A DNA stretch of 61,409 nucleotides, the filler included, from an uncultured Thermoplasmatales archaeon (lineage in GTDB: Archaea > Thermoplasmatota > E2 > DHVEG-1), in the NCBI GenBank assembly GCA_964517155.1. It is 4 parts of 4 records of this genome, joined end to end, with 100 filler letters (N's around TTAATTAATTAA, not from the genome) between each part and the next. Parts side by side here need not be neighbours in the genome. Positions count along the whole stretch, not along the records: positions 48,675 to 57,713 come from CAZFAZ010000080.1; 3 more parts are not named here. One strand, written 5' to 3'. Under the pieces are notes generated by a model. The model saw only the letters and a list, made by a program, of their open reading frames with translations, did not search any database and was not told the DNA's origin. Positions 31,749-57,813 of this stretch are shown here, in pieces; the stretch's first letter is position 1, and every line of letters begins with the position of its first letter. Made by a program: the position numbers and the translations under genes.

Positions 31749-31848
31749 NNNNNNNNNNNNNNNNNNNNNNNNNNNNNNNNNNNNNNNNNNNNTTAATTAA
31801 TTAANNNNNNNNNNNNNNNNNNNNNNNNNNNNNNNNNNNNNNNNNNNN
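31749..31848. other. Artificial contig linker
   Basis: N-run + TTAATTAATTAA (stops in all six frames) + N-run, 100 bp. Confidence 0.97.
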
Positions 31849-47339: not shown

Positions 47340-48574
47340 AGTACAGAATGCTTCTTTAATAATACAGCACCGTATATTCCAAGTAACCCCAATCCCACTG
47401 ATGGCCAAACTTACTCTACAGGTAATAGGCCATCTTCATTGAGTTGGACTGGAGGAGATCCTGATAATCATACTGTAAATTATACCATTTATTACAAAGC
47501 AGGTAGCAGTACATTTACAGTGTCTGACATATTAGGTTATGCTGAAAATACAACTAGTTATAGTATTACACCTTCACCTTCTTGGAGTACAACTTATTAT
47601 TGGCAAATTGTTGCAACCGATGAGCATGATGCATTTTCTATGGGTCCTATATGGCAGTTTACCACAGGTGCAAAAAGCAGTAGTGGTACTGGAGTGTATA
47701 TTCCCCCGACCTTAACCTTAACCGCTAATGCCGGAGGGCCATACACCGGACAAACAGGTACTCCTGTAAACTTTACCGGTTCTGCAACATACGGCTCTTC
47801 ACCTTATACTTACTCCTGGGATTTCGGAGATGACTCTACTGGTACAGGAGCTACACCAACGCATACTTATACAACAGCTGGGACTTATACAGTAACACTT
47901 ACTGTTACTGATAACGCAGTGGCTACTGATGATGATACCGCGACTGTTACTATATCTGAATCACCAACACCTACTTATCCACCAGTTGCCGATGCAGGTG
48001 GATTATATGAAGGTTTAACATTTGAAGATATCACATTTGATGGTTCAGACAGTTATGACTCTGATGGAAGTATTGTAAACTACACCTGGGATTTTGGCAA
48101 CGAAACTATTCTTTATGGTCAATTAGTGACGCATAGTTATAATATATCAGGATTGTTTAACATAACTTTAACAGTTACAGATGATGACGGTCTTACAAAT
48201 TCAAATACTACAACTATAACTATAACACTTGATACAGATGGTGACGGTCTTTCTGATAATGTAGAAGAAAGGCTTGGCTCAGATCCAACAAATAACTCAG
48301 ATGTTACAAAAATTAGTATAGAAAATGAGTCGTATTTTGTTGTTGATACAACAGGTGACAGTGAAGCAGATACTTTATATAATCCAGAAACTGATACAGA
48401 TAACTCTATAAAAATAATGCAAATAGGTGGCAAAAGATATTATATACTTGATACAGACAACGACGGCATATATGATACTTTTTATAATCCTGAAAAAGAT
48501 GAATATACCACACTTGAACAAGATGAAAACGGTAGATACAAAGTAGATATAGATAAAGACGGAAAAACAGATTA
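47340..48574 (+). CDS. PKD-domain surface protein fragment (lacks a normal 5' end; 3' truncated at contig end)
   Basis: Two PKD domains (ANAGGPY...WDFGD...YTVTLTVTD) and DxDxDG Ca-binding-like motifs. Frame open only from 47340, with no signal peptide. Confidence 0.7.
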
Positions 48575-48674
48575 NNNNNNNNNNNNNNNNNNNNNNNNNN
48601 NNNNNNNNNNNNNNNNNNTTAATTAATTAANNNNNNNNNNNNNNNNNNNNNNNNNNNNNNNNNNNNNNNNNNNN
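48575..48674. other. Artificial contig linker
   Basis: N-run + TTAATTAATTAA + N-run. Confidence 0.97.
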
Positions 48675-51600
48675 TTGTATTTTACAGCAAGTCCTTGCTC
48701 TTTACATATCTTGTTTACCTCTTTTTTTAGTTCTATTACTCTCATTTCTCTACCGATAGTTGCATCTTTGTATTTCTGAAGCTCCTCGAGATGCTCTTTT
48801 ACTTTTAGACTTGCTTTTTTACCTTCAGTAATATCAATTACAGATGCAAGAGCTGCTATTGTTCCTTTGTATTTTATAAAAGTTGTATATAATCTAACCC
48901 ACATCTCTTTTTTTCCGGGTGGATAAATTCTTACCTCTACAGATGGATCTATATTTTCTCCTGCAAGCCTTTTTCTCGTTCTTTCTTTTATTAGAGCTGC
49001 ATCATCAGGATGAATGTAATCAAAAAGATTTGTTTTTTCAATTTCTTCTTCTTTTATATTAAGGATTTTTCTTATCAGTGGATTTGCATAAAATAGTTTG
49101 TTTTTCACAGGGTCATGTATATATACTCCTGATGAGGATTGTTCTATTAGTGTTCTGAAGAGTTTTTCACTTTCTTTTAATTTGTTTGTTAGTTCTTTTT
49201 GTTTTGTAAGATCACTTATTATTCCTGCTATAAGCATGGTTTTTCCATTATCATCTGGTATCGGTGATGCATTTATTTGTACAGGAATTAATGTTCCATC
49301 TTTCTTTTTGTGTGTCTCCTCTATAAGTATATGTTCTCCTTTTTTAAGACGCTCTAGAGAATCTTTCACAATTGTTGTAATATTCTCTTTTATATGAAAA
49401 ATATCATGAGGTTTTCCAACAATTTCTTCTTTTTTGTATCCATGCATTTCTGCAAATGCATCGTTTACATAAATGGTTGTGCCATCTAGTTCAAATAAAA
49501 TCACTCCATATTTTGCTCTATCAGATATTGTCTTGAATTTTCTGATTTCTTCGCTATGTTTTCTCTCTATAGTAATGTCTCTTAGTATTACTTGAACCCC
49601 TGCTTTTTCACCTTCTTTTTTCATTATGGTGTATCTACATTCTCCCCATCGCATCTCTCCGTTTTTATGCTTCCATCTAAAAACAAAAGGTTCTTTTTCC
49701 CTTCCAAGTAAGATGTCTTTGTAAATCTTCATATATTTTGGGAATTCTTTGAGGCTTATTGTTGGAAGTTTTGATACATGTTTACCAACAATTTCTTCTT
49801 TGTTATAACCTGTTATATCTAAAAATGATTTATTCACCGAAGTTACTATACCCTTCAAATCAGATGCTGCTATTCCATCTGGGGAAATCTCAATCATGTT
49901 TCTGTGTTTTTCTTCGCTTTCTTTTAATTCTTCTTCTCCAATAAGTCTCTGTATTACAACAGAGCATTGATATCCAAAAGCTTTTAAGAATGAAGAGCGG
50001 ATCTCTTTTCCTTCTTTTTTTGTAAAAATCATTAGAACTCCAAAAAGTTTTTTATCATGATATAGAGGTACTACAAACATATCTTTGATTTTTAGTACAC
50101 TCTCAACTGTTTTGCAGACTGGCTTTGGCAAAGTACCAAATAATGCCTCATACAATCCTTCCTTTAACTCTAATATAGCCCCCTTCTTTACTTCTTCATG
50201 GATTTCTTTAGGGACTTTTACTTTGATTTTTGAAATCTCTCGGCCGAGTATCTTCGCTATTTTTCCGGATTCTTCGACGCCATATATTGCTCTATTAAAA
50301 AATACGTTTTCTTTTTTATCATATAAATTAACTGCAACAATAGATGGGCCACAATATTCATACAACTCTTTTCCAATATCATTACAAATCTCATCAACAT
50401 TTTTGCTTTTACTAATCCTGATCAGAGATCTTGATAAAAACTGGTTTTCTTCCAATGTTTCTTCTTTTTTCTTTTCAGCTTCTTTCTGACTAGTTATTTC
50501 AACAAAAGAAGTTACAATTTTATCGATTTCCCGCTTCTCATCTAGAATAGGTCTTGCACTATGTAAAAACCATCTGGTACTTTCTTTTTCTGACATTTTA
50601 AGCCCAATGATTATGCCTTCAGAAGGTTTTTTTGTTTCTGCGACAATTGATAAAGGAAAATCTTTTGGCTCCATCTCAGTTTCATCTGGTTTTATTAGTT
50701 TTCCTTTCCAAAATGATAAATCCTTTTTCTTTAGTTCTTCTTCAGGTAACCCAAATATTTTTTCAGCAGTCTTGTTTACTGCAAAAACACTACCATCTGA
50801 GTTATGGATATCTATTCCAACAAGTGCATTATTAAATAACTCACGATATTTCTCTTCACTTTTTCTTATTTCGTCTTCAGCCTTCTTTTTTTCTGTAATA
50901 TCCCTACTTAATTCTACAAGATTACTGATTTTCCCCGTTTTATCAAATATTGGATAACCACGTATCTGCCAGTATCTCCCATCCGGTGTTTGTTTTTCAA
51001 TTTCTTCAGGCTTACCTGTTTTATATGATTTTAAAACCGGGCAATCATTGCATGGTTTATTTGATTGATTCCAGAATTCATAACAATGTTTCCCAATCAT
51101 ATCCTCAGGTTTTTTTCCAACACTATCAGCTGATGATTTATTTACCCATAAAATTTCCAAATCAGTATTATAATAAGAAAAAAGTTCCTTAGTTGAATTT
51201 AATATTATAGATTTCTGTTTCTCGGATTTTTCTAGTTCTTCTTCCACCTCTTTTCTTTTTGTTATATCTCTTGAAATACATAGTATTCCTTCAGGAACTG
51301 GAGTCACATTTACTTCGTAATAACATTTACGCCCATCTTCAAATTCATACACATTTAAAACAGAGTCAAATTCTCTTGTTTTCATTACTTTTTCAAATGT
51401 TTTGAAAAACGGTGTTTCTTCTACACCCGGGAATACATCCTGCAGTCTTTTTCCTATTAGTTCTTCTTTTGTTTTACCTGTAAATTTTGTAGCAGATTCA
51501 TTTACTAAAATATGCTTAAAATCGTAATCAAGGACATAAATACTATCTTTACTAGCTTCAAGTAATACCCTGTGTCTTTCTTCACTTTCTTTTAATTTAA

Positions 51601-54055
51601 TTTCTCTTTCTTTTAAATAGGTAATGTCTTGAATGGTTCCTTTACATATCAATAATTCTCCTGCTGCATCCTTTGTGCATTCTATTATTTGATTAATCCA
51701 TTTTATCTCTCCACCAGGTGTGATTATTCTTTGTTCATATGGTTCTATGTAGCCTTCTTTTAATAGTTTATCAACCCGCTTTTGGTTTATCTCGCCATCG
51801 TCAGGATGAATTAACTTTGATATGTCATCATAACTCAAAACAAAATTATCCTTTTTAACACCAAAAATATCATAAAGCCCATCGGACCACCATATTTTAC
51901 TGTTTTTTATATCCCACTCCCAGTTTCCAAGCTTGGCAATCTCTTGAGCTTTTTTAAGCCTCTTCTCACTTTCTTTCAAAGACTTCTCTGCTTCATTTTT
52001 CTCAGTTATATCTGATGTTTGCATTACAATTCCATCAAACTCACCTTTTTGGTTTTTTAATGGAACCCATGAGCTTGATGCATACCAAAAATCTCCATTT
52101 TTCTTTATAGCTTTATATGAAAAATTACCTGCATTATGATTTGTAAAGGCATCTTTGAAAAGTCTTTTTGCTTCTTCGCGATCATCATGATGAGCCCACC
52201 ATTTTATTTCTTTATAAAAATCATCTGGACTATATCCTGTAAAATCTTTTGAATTTGGACTTATATAAACTGGTAAACCTTTTTTATCTGTAATCAAAAG
52301 CATACTTGGTACTGTTTCAACGATTTTTCTGAAAATCTCTTCTTTTTCTCTAAGTTCCTTATTTTGTCTCTTGCGGTCTGTTATGTCCCTTCCAATTACA
52401 AGTACTCTTTCTTCTCCACCTATGTTTACTTTTTGAAGAATATTTTCATGCCAAAGTATCTCCCCATTTTTTGTTTTTGAACACCATTCAAACTTTTGAG
52501 GTCCTTCTTCTGTTGCTTTTTTAATCCATTCAGCGGCTTCTTTTTGAGTGTAAGGGGGTTTATTTATACTTAGGTCGCCCACGTTTAGATTGTTAATTTC
52601 TTCTTTTTTGTATCCAAATTTATCAAGAACTGCTTTATTTACATCAATTATCTCGCCGGTTTTATAATCATGAATAAAGATAGAATCAGTAGATGAATTA
52701 AAGATTGTTTCATAGTTTTCTTGTGACTGTTTAATTTTATCTTCTACATCTTTTTTTTCAGTGATATCTATTAAAGAGGCAAGAGCTCCGACGTATTGTT
52801 TATTTTCTACTAATGGAGTGGTACTTAACAAGCAATATACTCTTTTTCCATTTTTTTTCAAAAATTCAAATTCATGAATTTCTTTTTCGCTTTTTTCTCT
52901 GTTTTTAAGTTTTTCTTTTGCGATTTCTTTCCATTTATCATCCATAAAATCAAAGAGATGCCTTCCCACCATCTCTTCTTTTGTATATCCAAATATCTCT
53001 GTCATTTTTTTATTTGTAAATGATGTATAACCATCTTTGTCAATTTCCCATATTCCTTCTTGTATATTTTCAATTAAACTGTGGTATCTCTCTTCACTTT
53101 CTTTTAGATTAATTTCAAACTTTTTTTCATCTGTCATATCTCTTGAAATAGCAATTATTTTTCCATCAGCAAGATTCGCAGTAGTTTGCATATAATGCCA
53201 ATTGCCTTCTTTGTCCTTTAATCTGTATTCAAACCTCTCCACTATTTTTTCATCTTTTCCAGTTAAAAGTTTTTTCCCCTTGTTTGCAATATATTTTTTT
53301 ACAAGATTTGAAAGATTCTTTTTATCCTCAGGATTTATAAAATCAAAAAATTTTTTTCCAATCAATTCTTTTGTATCATACCCCAAACGTTCTTTATGCG
53401 AGGGACTTACGTATATAATATCTGGATTTATTGAGAAAGATACAATTGATACCAGATCACTTGTGTTCTGACTTATAAAATCATAATGATACTTTATGTT
53501 TTCTAATTCTGTAATATCCTTTGAAATAACTTCTATATGTTTTATTTTGCCATTAATTTTTTTAGGAAAAACAGAAAAAGTCATTATGTGTTTTTTTCCT
53601 TTTTTATCTTTCAAGCTAGCAGTAAAATATTTTGTTTCTTTACCTCTGATAGCATCTTTGAATGCTTTGATATATATAGAAATATTTTTTTTACTGAAAA
53701 CTCCAGGTATGCGCCAGAAATATCTTCCAATTATTTCTTCTCTTTGAAATCCTGAAAACTTTAATCCTGCTTTGTTAATATCAATAATCTTTCCCTTTAA
53801 ATCAAGAAATAAAACCAAATCAGATACTTCGTTTAAAATAAGGTTCATATAATCTTCTGCATTATCCAAAAAATCCTGACTACCATCATCTTTTAACTCA
53901 ATACCTTCAGAGTTATCCATAGAAGAATAGATTTCTTCTTGCATATCCTTATTTGCCTCCCCCGGCAGTATTTGCTCCATTTCAGAACTAAAACCAACTA
54001 AACCAATTTTTTCTTCTTCCCGCAATTGTTTAATAATTTCGGGCTCTTCTTTCAT
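48675..54055 (-). CDS. Cytoplasmic multi-PAS (about 12) + GAF sensor protein; no kinase domain seen (stop not visible)
   Basis: Repeated SEEKYR...DITE PAS/PAC units with one GAF between PAS9 and PAS10. Ends IGREMRVIELKKEVN...KY at the contig edge. Confidence 0.88.
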
Positions 54056-54085
54056 GTAATCGCTCCATGCAACTTATATTTAACC

Positions 54086-55999
54086 CTAAATTTCATCACT
54101 TTCTTTTTCATCCTTTCCACTCTGCATACCAAATACATCAACGCCTTTGAACCTGCTTTCAATATCTTCAACTGATTTCTTTGGTAAAGTAAACTTAAAA
54201 GTACTTCCCTTGCCAGGAACACCCTCGCTTTCGACCCATATGTTTCCACCATGTGCAATAACTATTCCTCGTGATATGGCAAGACCAAGACCGGCTCCAC
54301 CAAATTTCACATCACTACTTGAGTCAACCTGGAAAAATGTTTCAAAAATCCTTTCCTGTTTATCCTTTGGAACACCCCTTCCATGGTCTTCAACTTCAAA
54401 TAAAATGTTTTCTTTATCTTGTCTTACTCTAAGATTCAACTCAGATTTTTCAGGAGAAAACTTAATAGCATTGTTTAAAAGATTAATAACGACTTGTGTA
54501 ATTCTATCTTTATCAACAATGAGAGTTGGTATCTCTCCTTTTACCTCTGTTTTGATAGTAATTTGTTTTAGCGAAGCAGATGATTTCATTGTCTCATCTA
54601 CTTCTTTTATCAAAACAGGAATATCTGCTTTTTCAGGTACAAACTTCATAGTACCGGATTCAAGCCGTGAAATATCCAAAATATCCTGAATCAGATTATC
54701 AAGCCTGGTTGCGTTTCTTTGAACAACCTCAAGAGCGCTTTTCTGTTCATCATTTATTTTTCCAAGATTGCCCTTTAGCATCATCTGAATATAACCTTTG
54801 ATAGAAGACATAGGGGTTCTAAGCTCATGAGAAGTTATATTTAGAAAAGCAGATTTTATGTAACTTAGTTTCTGCAAATCTTTATTTTGACTTGCGATTT
54901 TTTCTTTTGTTTTCTTCAGATTCTCAGAGGTCTCCTGCATATCCTCCATAATGTTTAATGCAGCAAGCTCTGTTTTTCTAAGATCACTTATCCTCTCTTC
55001 CTTTTCTTTTTCATTGACAATACTACTTGTTATATCTCTTGCTATGACCATTAAATTTTTTTGATCATCTTCTGTTTTAACAGGTATATACATAGTATGA
55101 AAGTATCTTTCGCCTCTCTGAACCTCATTTTCTTGTGTTTCTCCTGTGTTTAGAGCCTTTAGAGCAATTTCTGTTCTCTGATTATCAACATCAGGTGGCA
55201 GCATCTGATGCATATTCTGCCCGATTATTTTTTCCTTTTCAACACCAAAATTTTTGGCAATTGTTTCATTTGCATCAAGTATTATCCCATCTGTTGAAAG
55301 AACAGTTATCCCATCTGGAATAGTATCAAATAACTTCCTGTATTTTTCTTCAGTGGTTTTTAATTTTTTTTCAACCGAAAAATAGCTACCAATCCCACAT
55401 TTATCTGATTTTTCAGATTCAGGATTAATAAAAATAAGAGATAGGAATATATAACTTATAACAAAGGCAAAAGCAGAAAAAGAAGCATTCTCAAAAATTG
55501 TAATACCTGCAAAAATTGAACTTACTATAAATAAAAAAAAGTATAGATATGATATGTTTCTTGTTTTATAGTAAAGATAGGCAGTTGCAACAAAAACCTC
55601 CAAGGCAATTATTTGTCTAAGGTAATGTGGAGCTGTTGTTGCATCAAATGGTAAAAATATAAAAAAGATGCATGCAAAGGTTATTATTAAAAAACTGTAG
55701 AATATCTTGCTGTAATCTTTTATTTTGAAAAAACTTTCATTTACTGCAAAAAACACTGCAAACATCAGAGGAATAGATGAAAAACCTAGTATGTTTACCC
55801 ATAAAACAGATGTGTTTCCAGAATTTGCGTTTAGATTGCCTGTAAGAATCCCAATAAAATATAAATTTGAAAGAAGAAACGAAATAGAAAACATAAGTTT
55901 TCTTTTATCCTTGGACTTGTAATGGAGATAAAGTAGGTAAAGCCCAATAATCATACTAAAAACAAGTACAACAAGCCACATATGGTTATCAGGCATCAA
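54086..55999 (-). CDS. Membrane-bound PAS sensor histidine kinase
   Basis: About 6-7 TM helices, PAS, H-box SHELRTP, N-box NLLNNAIKF, G1 DHGRG, F-box FETFFQ and G2 GAGLGL. Confidence 0.93.
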   Translation of the reverse strand: MMPDNHMWLVVLVFSMIIGLYLLYLHYKSKDKRKLMFSISFLLSNLYFIGILTGNLNANSGNTSVLWVNILGFSSIPLMFAVFFAVNESFFKIKDYSKIFYSFLIITFACIFFIFLPFDATTAPHYLRQIIALEVFVATAYLYYKTRNISYLYFFLFIVSSIFAGITIFENASFSAFAFVISYIFLSLIFINPESEKSDKCGIGSYFSVEKKLKTTEEKYRKLFDTIPDGITVLSTDGIILDANETIAKNFGVEKEKIIGQNMHQMLPPDVDNQRTEIALKALNTGETQENEVQRGERYFHTMYIPVKTEDDQKNLMVIARDITSSIVNEKEKEERISDLRKTELAALNIMEDMQETSENLKKTKEKIASQNKDLQKLSYIKSAFLNITSHELRTPMSSIKGYIQMMLKGNLGKINDEQKSALEVVQRNATRLDNLIQDILDISRLESGTMKFVPEKADIPVLIKEVDETMKSSASLKQITIKTEVKGEIPTLIVDKDRITQVVINLLNNAIKFSPEKSELNLRVRQDKENILFEVEDHGRGVPKDKQERIFETFFQVDSSSDVKFGGAGLGLAISRGIVIAHGGNIWVESEGVPGKGSTFKFTLPKKSVEDIESRFKGVDVFGMQSGKDEKESDEI

Positions 56000-57713
56000 G
56001 GTTTTTACCCCCTATGTTTTTGTTTGATTCTAACCTTTTGATTTCTTTTTTCAACTCAGCCATCTTCAGCTCTCTTCCAACTGTCACCTTTTTAAACTTT
56101 TCAAGCGCCTCTATTTTATTTTGCAGTTCATCTGTTCTTTTTTCAACTTCTGTTTCAAGTTTTTCATTATATTTTTTCAGATTCGTAGCCATTTGAGTAA
56201 AAGATTTTGCAAGATCTCCTATCTCATCATTTGAGTTGATATCAATTGATGTATCTAAACTTCCTTGACCAATTCTTTGAGCAGCATCTTTTAGCTTTAT
56301 TATAGGTTTTGAAGTTGATCTGCTGATAAATATTGAAAGCAACAATGCAATTATTGTTGTAAAAATAATAATAGGCATCAAAGTTAAAAATAATGCAGTT
56401 ATTGGGGCAAATATCTCTTCTGTTTTATATTCCATTAACAAAATCCAGCCGTTGCCCTTGTATTCTTTATATCCATTTGATATTGCATGGGAAAATAATT
56501 CTCCTCCAATTATATAATAAGATTCATTCCCTTCTTTAAAACGTGATACATGATCTTTAGATATATTTTCAAAAATTATGTACTGTCCTTTTGAATAGAT
56601 TATTTTTCCATCGCTGTTTAGTAATTTAAATTCAAAATGTATAGCATTCTGGTTTTCAACTGCTTTTAATTTGTTTACATCAATTTCATCTATTACATCA
56701 AATATCTCTTGAATGTTATAAATAATCTTTATAACACCTGATAAATTCCCCTGTTTATCATTAATACTTATACAAATAGCAAGAGAATAAAAATCTGAGC
56801 TATTATCATATTCAACATCTGTTACATAAAAACCTTCATTTTTTGTTTTCTGCCACCAATCTTCATCAGCCTGATAATAATCACTAGTTTTTCCGGTTTG
56901 TGCGACATTAGCACCATATTTATTTGTTATAAATACTTCTGGAAATAAATCATAGCCATATTTTTCTTCGTAAAAGTTTATCCTGAGTCTAAGTTCATCG
57001 GATTGTTTGTTATTTATTATTTCTTGCATAAAAGAGGTTATCTCGTCTGTTCCGACAGACGTCCAATTTTTATCTTTTTCTACGATATATCCTAAAATAT
57101 CTGTAAAATTTTCAAATTCTTCATTAGATGCACTTAAAAACTCAAACAATTCAGGATCACTATCAATATATGATTCCCATCGTTCAAATCGCCGATAAAT
57201 AATCCTATCAACAGCATCTATGCCTTCCCTTACAACTAATACAGAATTTTCTCCAATCGTTTCTTCAAAAGCAGACCGGCTGCTAGAAATAATAAAATAT
57301 CCTGATACGTTTGAAATCAGTATAACTAGTAAAAAACCTGCGATTATTTTTCTTTGGATACTAAAACGAACTGGTTTCAGTAATTTGAACTTAAAAACAG
57401 CATATGCAATAATTAACGCTGTAAAAGTTGTAAGAGTCGAGGTTAAAGGAATTATTTCTAAGTTGATATAAAAGGGTATTACTTGAGATAAAAATCCACC
57501 AATAAGAGGTATCAAAAAAGCAATTATCACATATTTTGCTTGTTTCTTATTTTTATCTGAAGGAGTTTTTTTATAAAAACTATAACAAATACCGATGCTT
57601 AATACAACAAACAAAATAACAAAGAGGGATAAAACCGGATAAAGCATCCCTGGAACTTCAACATAACCCCAATATGAAGGCTGCATTTCTTTTGTAAAAA
57701 GATCTGTACTAAA
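55989..57713 (-). CDS. Membrane sensor: 7TM-like (partial)-Cache-HAMP, no kinase domain (5' truncated)
   Basis: TM helices, extracellular EVFITNKYG...SDYYQADEDWWQ, HAMP PIIKL...DEIGDLAKSF. Ends VGRELKMAELKKEI then a stop. Confidence 0.85.
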   Translation of the reverse strand, partial: FSTDLFTKEMQPSYWGYVEVPGMLYPVLSLFVILFVVLSIGICYSFYKKTPSDKNKKQAKYVIIAFLIPLIGGFLSQVIPFYINLEIIPLTSTLTTFTALIIAYAVFKFKLLKPVRFSIQRKIIAGFLLVILISNVSGYFIISSSRSAFEETIGENSVLVVREGIDAVDRIIYRRFERWESYIDSDPELFEFLSASNEEFENFTDILGYIVEKDKNWTSVGTDEITSFMQEIINNKQSDELRLRINFYEEKYGYDLFPEVFITNKYGANVAQTGKTSDYYQADEDWWQKTKNEGFYVTDVEYDNSSDFYSLAICISINDKQGNLSGVIKIIYNIQEIFDVIDEIDVNKLKAVENQNAIHFEFKLLNSDGKIIYSKGQYIIFENISKDHVSRFKEGNESYYIIGGELFSHAISNGYKEYKGNGWILLMEYKTEEIFAPITALFLTLMPIIIFTTIIALLLSIFISRSTSKPIIKLKDAAQRIGQGSLDTSIDINSNDEIGDLAKSFTQMATNLKKYNEKLETEVEKRTDELQNKIEALEKFKKVTVGRELKMAELKKEIKRLESNKNIGGKNLDA

Positions 57714-57813
57714 NNNNNNNNNNNNNNNNNNNNNNNNNNNNNNNNNNNNNNNNNNNNTTAATTAATTAANNNNNNNNNNNNNNNNNNNNNNNNNNNNNNN
57801 NNNNNNNNNNNNN
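57714..57813. other. Artificial contig linker
   Basis: N-run + TTAATTAATTAA + N-run. Confidence 0.97.

Follow-up and report, generated by a model that had tools for sequence, protein, structure and literature searches.

In the usual description of two-component signalling, sensing and phosphorylation are tasks of a single protein. The locus studied here, from an uncultured Thermoplasmatales archaeon (GCA_964517155.1), raises the question of how sensors that carry no kinase of their own could reach one: two otherwise unrelated kinase-less proteins sharing a terminal coil lie on either side of a histidine kinase gene. An earlier note had proposed that coils on the sensors and on the kinase are complementary docking helices, by which both sensors control the kinase in trans.

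The window is the whole stretch of DNA that was analysed, 61,409 nucleotides with filler, from a binned assembly of 91 contigs. All three genes lie on one piece of this concatenated window, contig C80 (9,039 bp, 48675-57713). The sensor coil, GRE, is a basic helix of about 25 residues with the consensus ELE+F.+.TVGRELKM.ELKKEI. The kinase coil, MED, is an acidic unit of about 21 residues, LE.[ST]..A.LN[IM][LM]ED, present once or more per kinase. The features are as follows.

55989..57713, minus strand: gene 1, kinase-less membrane sensor (HisKA_7TM, Cache-like, HAMP, GRE tail), from ORF 55989-57686 and Pfam
56040..56108, minus strand: GRE helix core of gene 1 (ELEKFKKVTVGRELKMAELKKEI), profile match E 1.2e-23
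54086..55999, minus strand: gene 2, multi-pass membrane PAS histidine kinase with one MED unit, from Pfam
54914..54997, minus strand: MED unit of gene 2 (ERISDLRKTELAALNIMEDMQETSENLK), profile match E 1.7e-8
54827..54829, minus strand: codon of the predicted phospho-acceptor His (residue 391, H-box SHELRTP), from ORF, Pfam and MED-His spacing
48675..54055, minus strand: gene 3, kinase-less cytoplasmic sensor with 12 PAS and one GAF-like domain and a GRE tail, from Pfam, TIGR00229 and the C80-C20 overlap
48716..48784, minus strand: GRE helix core of gene 3 (ELQKYKDATIGREMRVIELKKEV), 'RV' subtype with extension EVNKICKEQG, profile match E 4.3e-19
31749-31848, 48575-48674 and 57714-57813, no strand: artificial linkers N44-TTAATTAATTAA-N44 between contigs, non-genomic

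The three genes are co-oriented and tightly packed, as had been noted, with minus-strand reading frames at 55989-57686, 54086-55999 and 48675-54055. The 11-bp overlap described between genes 1 and 2 is 11 nt with the TTG start of gene 2 and 8 nt with the ATG at 55996; the gap between genes 2 and 3 is 30 nt, and the three peptide strings quoted at the time all occur in the translated frames. Gene 2 is a sensor kinase of the HisKA class, with an H-box His in its DHp and a HATPase_c domain: Pfam places PAS at 218-325, HisKA (PF00512) at 382-449 (E 3.8e-18) and HATPase_c (PF02518) at 496-608 (E 4.6e-30). Genes 1 and 3 were also considered as histidine kinases and rejected, since Pfam finds neither HisKA/DHp nor HATPase_c in them and both stop shortly after GRE.

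Both outer genes of C80 are truncated by contig ends, gene 1 at its 5' side and gene 3 at its 3' side. The frame of gene 1 stays open up to 57713. Database protein P0001 (686 aa) is identical to this frame over residues 113-686 and, over residues 1-29, to an ORF start at the end of contig C60; the full-length product of gene 1 has 686 aa. Its Pfam matches are a partial HisKA_7TM, a dCache_1 below the cut-off and HAMP at 453-504, with none to HisKA, HATPase or the MCP signal domain, and the stop codon lies 19 residues past the GRE core. A methyl-accepting chemotaxis protein was rejected for gene 1 because Pfam finds no MCP signal domain behind the HAMP.

At the other end, C80 and C20 overlap exactly over 99 bp. 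Gene 3 runs 12 codons further on C20 and then stops, 28 residues past its GRE core with this join included, and its homologue in a relative (L003) ends 30 residues past the motif. The possibility that gene 3 continues beyond the contig into a HisKA domain of its own, which the earlier note had named as fatal to its proposal, thus falls away. Its description as 12 PAS plus GAF stands for the PAS part, Pfam matches being to PAS families only and TIGR00229 marking 12 stretches, whereas the GAF appears only below threshold (PF01590, 19.3 bits against a cut-off of 22.4).

The gene order was pieced together from contig overlaps, the full-length database copy and an uninterrupted relative. It reads REC-PAS-GRE, gene 1 (7TM-Cache-HAMP-GRE), gene 2 (MED kinase), gene 3 (12xPAS-GRE), a second MED kinase and a third kinase; in L003 the equivalent order is found unbroken on a single contig. 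The gene upstream of gene 1, on C60, is REC-PAS(x5)-GRE without enzymatic or DNA-binding output and has 11 residues from motif to stop, and single-domain REC genes also sit upstream on C60. All three local sensor-to-next-gene junctions overlap, by ATGA or 8-11 nt (translational coupling); the end of gene 3 shares its ATGA with the start of the second MED kinase on C20, in synteny with L003. The cluster is three sensors and two matching kinases, rather than two sensors around one. Gene 2 is the only kinase inside C80, as had been stated, but not beyond it.

Taken by itself, C80 suggests that genes 1 and 3 both dock on gene 2, since within it two GRE genes flank one kinase, and among related operons several indeed pair two GRE sensors with one kinase. 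However, there the two sensors both precede the kinase, whereas gene 3 comes after gene 2. Further, gene 3 overlaps the C20 kinase, in the same order as in L003, and tails of its type ('GREMRV...EVN..C..G') precede '[IV]S[MI]LED' kinases in 5/5 cases and 'LNIMED' kinases in none. We find it highly improbable that these two sensors share gene 2. The earlier picture of a flanked middle kinase is a contig-end effect, arising because both contig ends cut the cluster: behind gene 3 comes a MED kinase of its own, of matching subtype. As second sensor for the gene 2 kinase, the REC-PAS-GRE gene ahead of gene 1 is the likelier candidate.

It should be considered that the split genes are themselves an artefact of frameshift, misassembly or decaying kinase genes, given a bin of 91 contigs and outer genes cut by contig ends. 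This is scarcely credible. The equivalent stop/start arrangement occurs with intact frames in dozens of genomes from several phyla, a conservation on which the frameshift version was rejected, and the breaks are ordinary 99-bp graph overlaps, present at many contig ends.

The position of GRE is strikingly constant. The window together with loci L001-L122 yields 146 GRE proteins. The 3' end is complete in 145 of them, and all 145 stop at most 30 residues past the motif; neither an H-box nor a MED unit is present in any of the 146. For database GRE proteins the corresponding fraction is 155/159, and the profile matches 15,293 sequence clusters in all. A 'longer' protein search with the GRE tail as query gave none at E <= 0.01, which is weak evidence. 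The sensors have only GRE in common, their other domains including 7TM/Cache/HAMP, PAS, GAF, REC, CHASE, CHASE4 and flavodoxin-like. In the source genome the GRE profile finds three proteins (E 1e-17 to 1e-23 per genome) and the MED profile two (E 1.7e-8 and 1.5e-5); judged by these profiles, both motifs are far from chance. Pfam and NCBIfam hold no GRE or MED family, the NCBIfam matches being generic kinase/PAS models below cut-off except TIGR00229. A PDB sequence search with the GRE profile gave chance coiled-coil matches alone (E 0.3 or worse), and in the literature motif strings led to unrelated papers only, and concepts to general kinase-mechanism papers and an archaeal census, with no publication on either motif among them.

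Co-occurrence, adjacency and fusion, by which the earlier note had wanted its two coils judged, are all found, in two phylum samples and, for fusions, in a third. Directional adjacency was counted in 80 public loci. Relative to the GRE gene, a MED-motif gene is seen at +1 on the same strand in 32/63 cases, at +2 in 8/51 and at +3 in 6/40, with 1/55 at -1 and 6/363 far away. HisKA or HisKA_2 kinases make up 37 of the 69 downstream neighbours of GRE genes, and many downstream kinases have no sensor domain, only MED units before the DHp (L050, L066, L069, L072, L081). The pattern that defines the class, GRE at the C-terminus of a kinase-less protein with a MED kinase directly downstream on the same strand, is present here.

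All GRE/MED counts overstate the support, because the genomes are related and not independent; with this in mind, 301 genomes of the archaeon's own phylum divide into 31 with both motifs, 11 with GRE only, one with MED only and 258 with neither, and in 28 of these 31 genomes MED follows GRE on the same strand. In 301 genomes from the phylum of a Paceibacterota MAG (G302) the numbers are 27, 6, 2 and 266, with the motifs adjacent in 23/27. The MED-only counts are possibly too low, since A2, the profile for MED, derives from units beside GRE genes. GRE without detected MED accounts for 11/42 and 6/33 genomes in the two phyla, several of these matches being weak or at contig ends. At two loci, L134 and L125 (a contig end), no MED was seen near a C-terminal GRE.

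A third phylum, that of G301, seemed at first sight to have GRE commonly without MED kinases, at 38/301 against 3/301 genomes. This is resolved by fused, divergent MED units that A2 missed: 32 of 38 further GRE loci (37 genomes) are hybrid kinases of the form PAS-GRE-tether-MED-DHp, in which the tether is variable, of low complexity and about 50-60 residues long. Within residues 200-340 of one of these fused kinases (L123) there is no Pfam match. Proteobacterial fusions take G-M-PAS-PAS-G and M...G forms.

These data bear on whether GRE binds some other partner, for example the small single-domain receivers that most operons encode just after the kinase, or the DHp/CA core, so that the sensors are feedback targets, scaffolds or anti-kinases. 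A pair of receiver genes (about 125 aa each) closes the operons of the family, REC-PAS-GRE is one of the sensor classes, and the known anti-kinases KipI and Sda act on the DHp. However, fusions put GRE directly ahead of MED and never ahead of REC, the genome-level co-occurrence is with MED, and L050, L061 and L069 retain the GRE-MED pair without small REC genes. We therefore consider a partner other than MED decidedly unlikely.

MED always sits on the input side of a kinase or PAS module. In gene 2 its Asn lies 42 residues from the phospho-acceptor His, and AlphaFold2 predicts for this segment a single helix over residues 2-78, spanning MED (16-23) and His 61, with pLDDT 89. Among 40 non-redundant kinases the Asn-His distances are 28, 35, 42, or 46, 53, 60, 74, 81, 88, 116, exclusively residue classes 0 and 4 modulo 7, and in fused forms they are 42 or 49. 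From this model and these spacing classes the MED segment is predicted to be a continuous helix in register, as in a linker of the S-helix type.

The subtypes of the two motifs vary together. In 62 non-redundant adjacent pairs, GRE +5 Met goes with MED Asn in 56 and GRE +5 Val or Ile with MED Ser in 6, with no mixed pair; the Val/Ser group contains the pair of gene 3 and the C20 kinase. Fused forms break this pairing, L126 for example having Val with Asn. MED repeats number 1-5, without following how many sensors are adjacent. At most three lineages lie behind the covariation of Met/Asn and Val/Ser. Raw mutual information of GRE against MED columns mainly reflected variable columns that mark lineages, and it was set aside.

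A simpler account is that the motifs are mere coiled-coil end-caps that never touch, GRE closing the output helix of a sensor and MED opening the input helix of a kinase. Co-regulated neighbours would then communicate elsewhere, for instance by PAS-PAS pairing or a ligand in common, or would work side by side on one set of receivers. Both motifs do lie in long predicted helices beside S-helix-like 'RT.EL' repeats, which precede GRE. Gene 2 and the C20 kinase, like many relatives of gene 2, own membrane and PAS inputs, so outside sensors are not strictly needed. An AlphaFold2 model of a fused segment (P0016 family, A4, 8 sequences) gave helices at 4-48 and 71-124, but with a linker pLDDT <50 and pTM 0.30 it carries no packing information. 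However, the many partner kinases with MED alone offer no other input surface, because nothing else precedes their DHp, and on the sensor side GRE alone is shared. The tether between GRE and MED in the 32 fused kinases is variable and of low complexity, and therefore the signal cannot pass through a continuous helix there. Together with the joint variation of the subtypes, this makes simple end-caps a fairly unlikely account.

Among known systems, a first likeness is to HAMP, a helix-connector-helix element between input and kinase that forms a four-helix bundle in the dimer, with a connector of about 14 residues. GRE and MED would likewise form a two-helix, dimeric, coiled-coil junction between sensor modules and the DHp, and in the fused forms they have a connector. 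However, the Pfam HAMP model matches neither motif, gene 1 has its true HAMP upstream of GRE, gene 2 has no Pfam HAMP match, the connector has 50-90 variable residues, and the two helices are usually on separate proteins. We know of no HAMP whose helices are split over two proteins. A second likeness is to the signalling helix (S-helix) of sensor kinases, reportedly described by Anantharaman, Balaji and Aravind in 2006: MED is continuous with the DHp helix at heptad-quantised distances, and 'RT.EL' repeats come before GRE. S-helices, however, link domains within one chain, whereas GRE ends one protein and MED opens the input side of another.

H-NOX with HnoK is a pair of stand-alone sensor and partner kinase, and as here the gene of a kinase-less sensor sits next to that of the kinase which is its presumed target in trans. 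The interface there is a specific globular sensor domain, in contrast to a portable terminal helix on unrelated sensors, and Pfam finds no H-NOX domain in genes 1 or 3. Chemoreceptor arrays (receptor-CheW-CheA) also combine many kinase-less receptors, long helical output regions and one histidine kinase, but the MCP signal domain, CheW and CheA are absent here, and the proposed coupling to ordinary HisKA/HisKA_2 kinases is directly from helix to helix. Finally, archaeal REC-PAS/GAF regulators without known output have been catalogued, and protein-protein contacts proposed for them (Galperin et al. 2018, PMC5847659). The REC-PAS(x5) gene upstream of gene 1 resembles these regulators. In the parts of that census available to us no output element is named, and C-terminal GRE is a candidate for the missing output here.

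Taken together, position, adjacency, co-occurrence and the fusion order of GRE before MED strongly support reading the two coils as halves of one conserved signalling junction. That part of the docking-helix proposal stands on sequence comparison. The motifs with their positions, the gene order, co-occurrence, fused forms, helical continuity and register are direct results, while we infer GRE-MED contact, the direction of signalling and the assignment of sensors to kinases. A complex prediction with two copies of the gene 2 MED-DHp (A3) and two of the gene 1 GRE tail (A1) scored 0.01 against a mark of 0.32, which speaks neither for nor against binding.

A modular system, in which separate input and kinase proteins are joined by a dedicated GRE/MED helix pair, is the reading we consider reasonably probable. 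In such a system the GRE helices of a sensor dimer would pack on the MED segment of a kinase dimer, and the conformational state of the sensor would travel along the kinase coiled coil to the phospho-acceptor His. Gene 1, an outside-facing Cache sensor, and the upstream REC-PAS-GRE protein would feed the gene 2 kinase, and gene 3 with its 12 PAS domains would feed the next kinase, on C20. The kinases would then phosphorylate single-domain receivers, two of which come after the kinase in the operons of relatives.

The wider proposal, that GRE and MED are a universal, portable plug and socket by which sensor modules, and likewise kinase modules, can be swapped throughout bacteria and archaea, is tentative, and we give it slightly less than an even chance. 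If it is true, any GRE-ended protein would drive any module opening with a compatible MED, and a few residues would choose the partner (Met or Val at GRE +5, matched to Asn or Ser in MED). Several sensors could converge on one kinase, tandem MED repeats would be several sockets, and proteins with MED in front and GRE at the end would be relays. This would be a wiring layer of protein contacts upstream of phosphotransfer, especially conspicuous in lineages with small genomes (Patescibacteria, DPANN archaea) and perhaps reusable for synthetic sensors.

That the two helices recur, adjacent or fused, in many bacteria and archaea suggests that separate sensors are connected to a kinase in a manner not described before. 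If a short helix at the end of a sensor suffices for coupling, it would explain both the thousands of 'orphan' PAS, GAF, Cache and REC proteins without output domain and the kinases without input domain. It would further give a rule that predicts sensor-kinase partners from sequence only, and a compact, transferable connector for sensor engineering. The fused forms with long flexible tethers would be its natural single-chain version, suited to structural work.

The window consists of four contigs from a binned genome of 91 contigs and 1.585 Mb (completeness 90.8%, contamination 0.51%), joined by linkers. As the linkers are artificial and the contigs unrelated, gene neighbourhoods that span a linker are not real. 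The stretch 48675-57713 is precisely contig C80, 9,039 bp. The features needed here are the following.

Linkers and C80 genes in the window
31749-31848, 48575-48674 and 57714-57813: artificial linkers, N44-TTAATTAATTAA-N44, joining contigs C76, C78, C80 and C89
55989-57713, minus strand: gene 1, sensor; HisKA_7TM (partial), dCache_1 (sub-threshold) and HAMP by Pfam
54086-55999, minus strand: gene 2, histidine kinase; PAS, HisKA and HATPase_c by Pfam
48675-54055, minus strand: gene 3, sensor; only PAS families by Pfam, 12 stretches by TIGR00229

The three open reading frames lie as the earlier note described them: the overlap of genes 1 and 2 (11 nt with a TTG start, 8 nt with an ATG start), the 30-nt gap between genes 2 and 3 and all three quoted peptides are present. 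Pfam finds no kinase or MCP output domain in genes 1 and 3. The GAF domain ascribed to gene 3 is only a GAF-like region scoring under the Pfam cut-off, and contig ends truncate both outer genes.

The neighbouring contigs supply what is missing. The frame of gene 1 is still open at the end of C80, so its 5' part is cut. Residues 113-686 of P0001, a database protein of 686 aa, match gene 1 exactly, and residues 1-29 match, again exactly, an ORF starting at the extreme end of contig C60. That ORF starts within an ATGA shared with the stop of the gene for an 840-aa REC-PAS(x5) protein; the C-terminus of this protein is again GRE, the basic helix that closes the kinase-less sensors. At the other side, C80 begins with 99 bases that also end contig C20 and occur on no other contig; end overlaps of 99 bp are frequent in the assembly, affecting 48 contig ends. 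Followed across this overlap, gene 3 has 12 more codons before its stop, where an ATGA also holds the start codon of the gene for a 638-aa HisKA_7TM-PAS-HisKA-HATPase kinase. Gene 3 thus does not run on into a HisKA domain of its own, which would have spoken against its role as a separate sensor. The helix before the DHp domain of the C20 kinase reads ELATISMLED and represents MED, the acidic unit found ahead of DHp; a third kinase of 300 aa, without a motif of this type, comes next. In a related archaeal MAG (locus L003) the entire arrangement is found on a single unbroken contig.

Gene order in L003
TM protein
REC
REC/PAS-GRE
gene 1 homologue (GRE)
gene 2 homologue (MED kinase)
gene 3 homologue (GRE), stopping 30 residues past the GRE motif
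7TM-PAS-MED kinase

From the contig joins and this synteny, the real cluster contains three GRE sensors, two MED kinases and a third kinase. The pairing of the two helices proposed earlier is retained, while the local topology, two sensors flanking one kinase, has to be given up. Scanned by regex, the whole genome yields no GRE or MED protein beyond the cluster's own three and two.

A few further features were seen around the cluster. The peptide EPxI[IV]KxLREEE..G opens three of its cytoplasmic proteins, gene 3 (window 54029-54055), the REC-PAS-GRE protein of C60 (L001) and the third kinase (L002:2248-3147). These are its sole matches genome-wide, homologues in L003, L084 and L112 carry it as well, and it might act as another tag, for docking or for localisation. 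Two single-domain receiver genes (L001 2732-3109 and 4836-5219) lie with a 260-aa membrane protein upstream of REC-PAS-GRE; they are conserved in L003 and probably belong to the same signalling island. Unrelated to the cluster is a secreted-looking repeat protein at window 47439-48574, cut by the end of C78, with PKD-like 'FDGS.S.D.DG' repeats followed by Asp-rich, calcium-binding-like 'DTDGDG' repeats.

The GRE helix is widespread. A profile built from 15 GRE tails (A1) matches 15,293 cluster representatives among 1.84 billion at E <= 1e-3, and 1,290 at E <= 1e-10. The protein ends within 30 residues of the motif in 155 of 159 database GRE proteins examined. Scanning one genome per species gave 529 pattern matches, 498 of which were confirmed, and by record label the best 80 of these 498 loci are mostly from Patescibacteria, DPANN archaea, Thermoplasmatales, Bacteroidota, Myxococcota and Nitrospirota. 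In a set of 146 GRE proteins (the window, the best 80 public loci and 40 further home-phylum loci) a stop follows within 30 residues in all 145 with complete ends, and an H-box or MED unit is present in none. The remaining domains of the sensors are mutually unrelated (7TM, Cache, HAMP, PAS, GAF, REC, CHASE, CHASE4, flavodoxin-like). No model for the helix exists in Pfam or NCBIfam, and a sequence search of the PDB returned no matching chain. A second GRE helix is present in four database proteins (P0015, P0017, P0092 and P0100); the pair either stands in tandem at the C-terminus or is divided between the two ends (GRE-TM-CHASE-GRE).

Genes with the MED motif cluster just downstream of the GRE gene.

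MED-motif genes by position relative to the GRE gene, best 80 public loci
+1, same strand: 32/63
+2: 8/51
+3: 6/40
-1: 1/55
Opposite strand, within three genes: 0/70
Far from the GRE gene, either strand: 6/363

HisKA or HisKA_2 kinases make up 37 of 69 downstream neighbours. Many downstream kinases have no sensor domain at all, just one to five MED units before DHp, frequently as perfect tandem repeats of 21 residues. In L066, L069, L072, L075, L078-L082 and L105 two to five tandem copies form the N-terminus of such kinases, and the copy number does not correspond to the number of adjacent GRE sensors. When the +1 gene is not a kinase, a MED kinase is usually found one or two positions further on. 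The intervening gene encodes an SBP_bac_3 solute-binding protein, FIST or a Pfam-less protein of about 200 aa (L011, L014, L016, L026, L028, L039, L042, L053, L065, L067); these genes, which belong to Patescibacteria and DPANN loci, might supply additional input to the system. The usual operon of the home family begins with one or two GRE sensors, continues with one MED kinase and closes with two receivers, each of about 125 aa. In L057, L076 and L135 the GRE sensor is of an 'EIN.LL...G...KY' subtype, and after it come a gene for a CheR methyltransferase (confirmed by Pfam in L057; in the other two assigned from size or sequence), a large kinase and a MED protein, which in L135 carries an N-terminal REC. 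The CheR gene may point to a link with methylation-based adaptation.

To what extent the two motifs share genomes was studied in samples from three phyla, 301 genomes per phylum, using A1 and a second profile (A2) made from 55 MED units, with overlap and adjacency read from coordinates in paired match tables. The home phylum has 31 genomes with both, 11 with GRE only, 1 with MED only and 258 with neither, and the phylum of G302, by record label a Paceibacterota MAG, has 27, 6, 2 and 266; the MED-only counts are possibly too low, as A2 was built on units adjoining GRE genes, and the genomes are related, so the counts are not independent. MED lies downstream on the same strand in 28/31 and 23/27 of the genomes with both, and five of those in the home phylum are from other families.

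In the phylum to which G301 belongs (by record label a Bacteroidetes MAG), GRE matches 38 of 301 genomes but A2 only 3. This looks like a refutation, GRE being common where MED kinases are lacking. When all 38 remaining GRE loci of this phylum, from 37 genomes, were retrieved, the discrepancy turned out to be mostly due to fused, divergent MED units. Hybrid kinases of 825-1,056 aa with GRE and MED on one chain account for 32 loci and contig-cut fragments of the same type for two; the other four are C-terminal GRE sensors, two with a MED protein 2-3 genes downstream and two with none detected. The order in the hybrids is PAS, GRE (around residue 200-250), tether, MED (for example ALLNLVEDA or VLLNLIEDA), DHp, HATPase, REC, REC, Hpt. 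Some carriers of the fused kinase in the sample are complete genomes, among them G403, G431 and G427. The MED Asn precedes the His by 42 or 49 residues in 31 of 32, the regex giving no spacing for L159. Their tether, about 50-60 residues, is variable, acidic and of low complexity, so the signal cannot simply follow a single helix from PAS to DHp. Other fusions are found in proteobacteria.

Proteobacterial fusions
Sensor-GRE, gap of ~19-28 residues between profile matches, MED-PAS-PAS-GRE: 10 proteins
MED...PAS...GRE: 6 proteins
Kinase-REC-PAS-GRE: 3 proteins
GRE-PocR-MED-PAS...GRE

In the fused proteins GRE precedes MED every time, and elsewhere GRE is terminal. By the classic gene-fusion argument, union in one chain indicates that the two parts work together. 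Adjacency, co-occurrence and fusion, the three patterns the earlier note had asked for, are thus all found in the comparative samples, and GRE sensors are very probably functionally coupled to MED kinases.

The geometry of MED was studied in 40 non-redundant kinases with MED directly before DHp. The Asn-to-His distance is 28, 35 or 42 in 17 proteins and 46, 53, 60, 74, 81, 88 or 116 in 23, i.e. only residue classes 0 and 4 modulo 7. AlphaFold2, given the gene 2 segment and 24 relatives, predicts a single helix over residues 2-78 (mean pLDDT 89), including MED (residues 16-23) and His 61, and then the DHp hairpin. Heptad spacing and a single modelled helix indicate that MED is part of the input coiled coil of the kinase, in fixed register with the His. 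Further, five hydrophobic positions surround the Asn in the MED core, exceeding the need of a two-stranded coil; the surplus would fit the packing of additional helices. The mean charge is +1.6 for GRE 28-mers (basic) and -3.1 for MED 28-mers (acidic).

Two GRE/MED subtypes coexist in the source genome. GRELKM/GREIKM tails (gene 1 and the C60 sensor) precede the LNIMED kinase, gene 2, and the GREMRV tail of gene 3, with its EVN..C..G extension, precedes the ISMLED kinase of C20; both pairings are seen again in relatives. Among 62 non-redundant adjacent pairs, Met at GRE +5 goes with MED Asn in 56, Val/Ile with Ser in 6 and mixed pairs in 0, where the six trace to at most three lineages and fused kinases break the rule. 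At the level of sequence this is suggestive of a matching that might set partner choice. Most likely gene 1 and the REC-PAS-GRE protein serve the gene 2 kinase, and gene 3 the C20 kinase.

We infer that GRE and MED touch directly, helix to helix. The GRE helices of a sensor dimer would dock onto the MED segment of a kinase dimer, probably as a four-helix bundle, HAMP-like but divided between proteins, and docking would fix the state of the coiled coil running to the phospho-acceptor histidine. We hold this mechanism as a whole to be somewhat better than an even bet. HAMP and S-helix linkers are single-chain, whereas the proposed element is split between proteins; in H-NOX and similar stand-alone sensors the interface is globular, and chemoreceptor arrays operate via CheW and CheA.

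A literature search by motif and concept found neither GRE nor MED described. A census of archaeal two-component systems lists REC-PAS/GAF proteins without known output and suggests that they work via protein contacts, its passages on them naming no element (PMC5847659). In the light of comparative evidence that argues strongly for it, GRE-MED would be a further way in which sensors act in trans on histidine kinases, presumably by direct contact.
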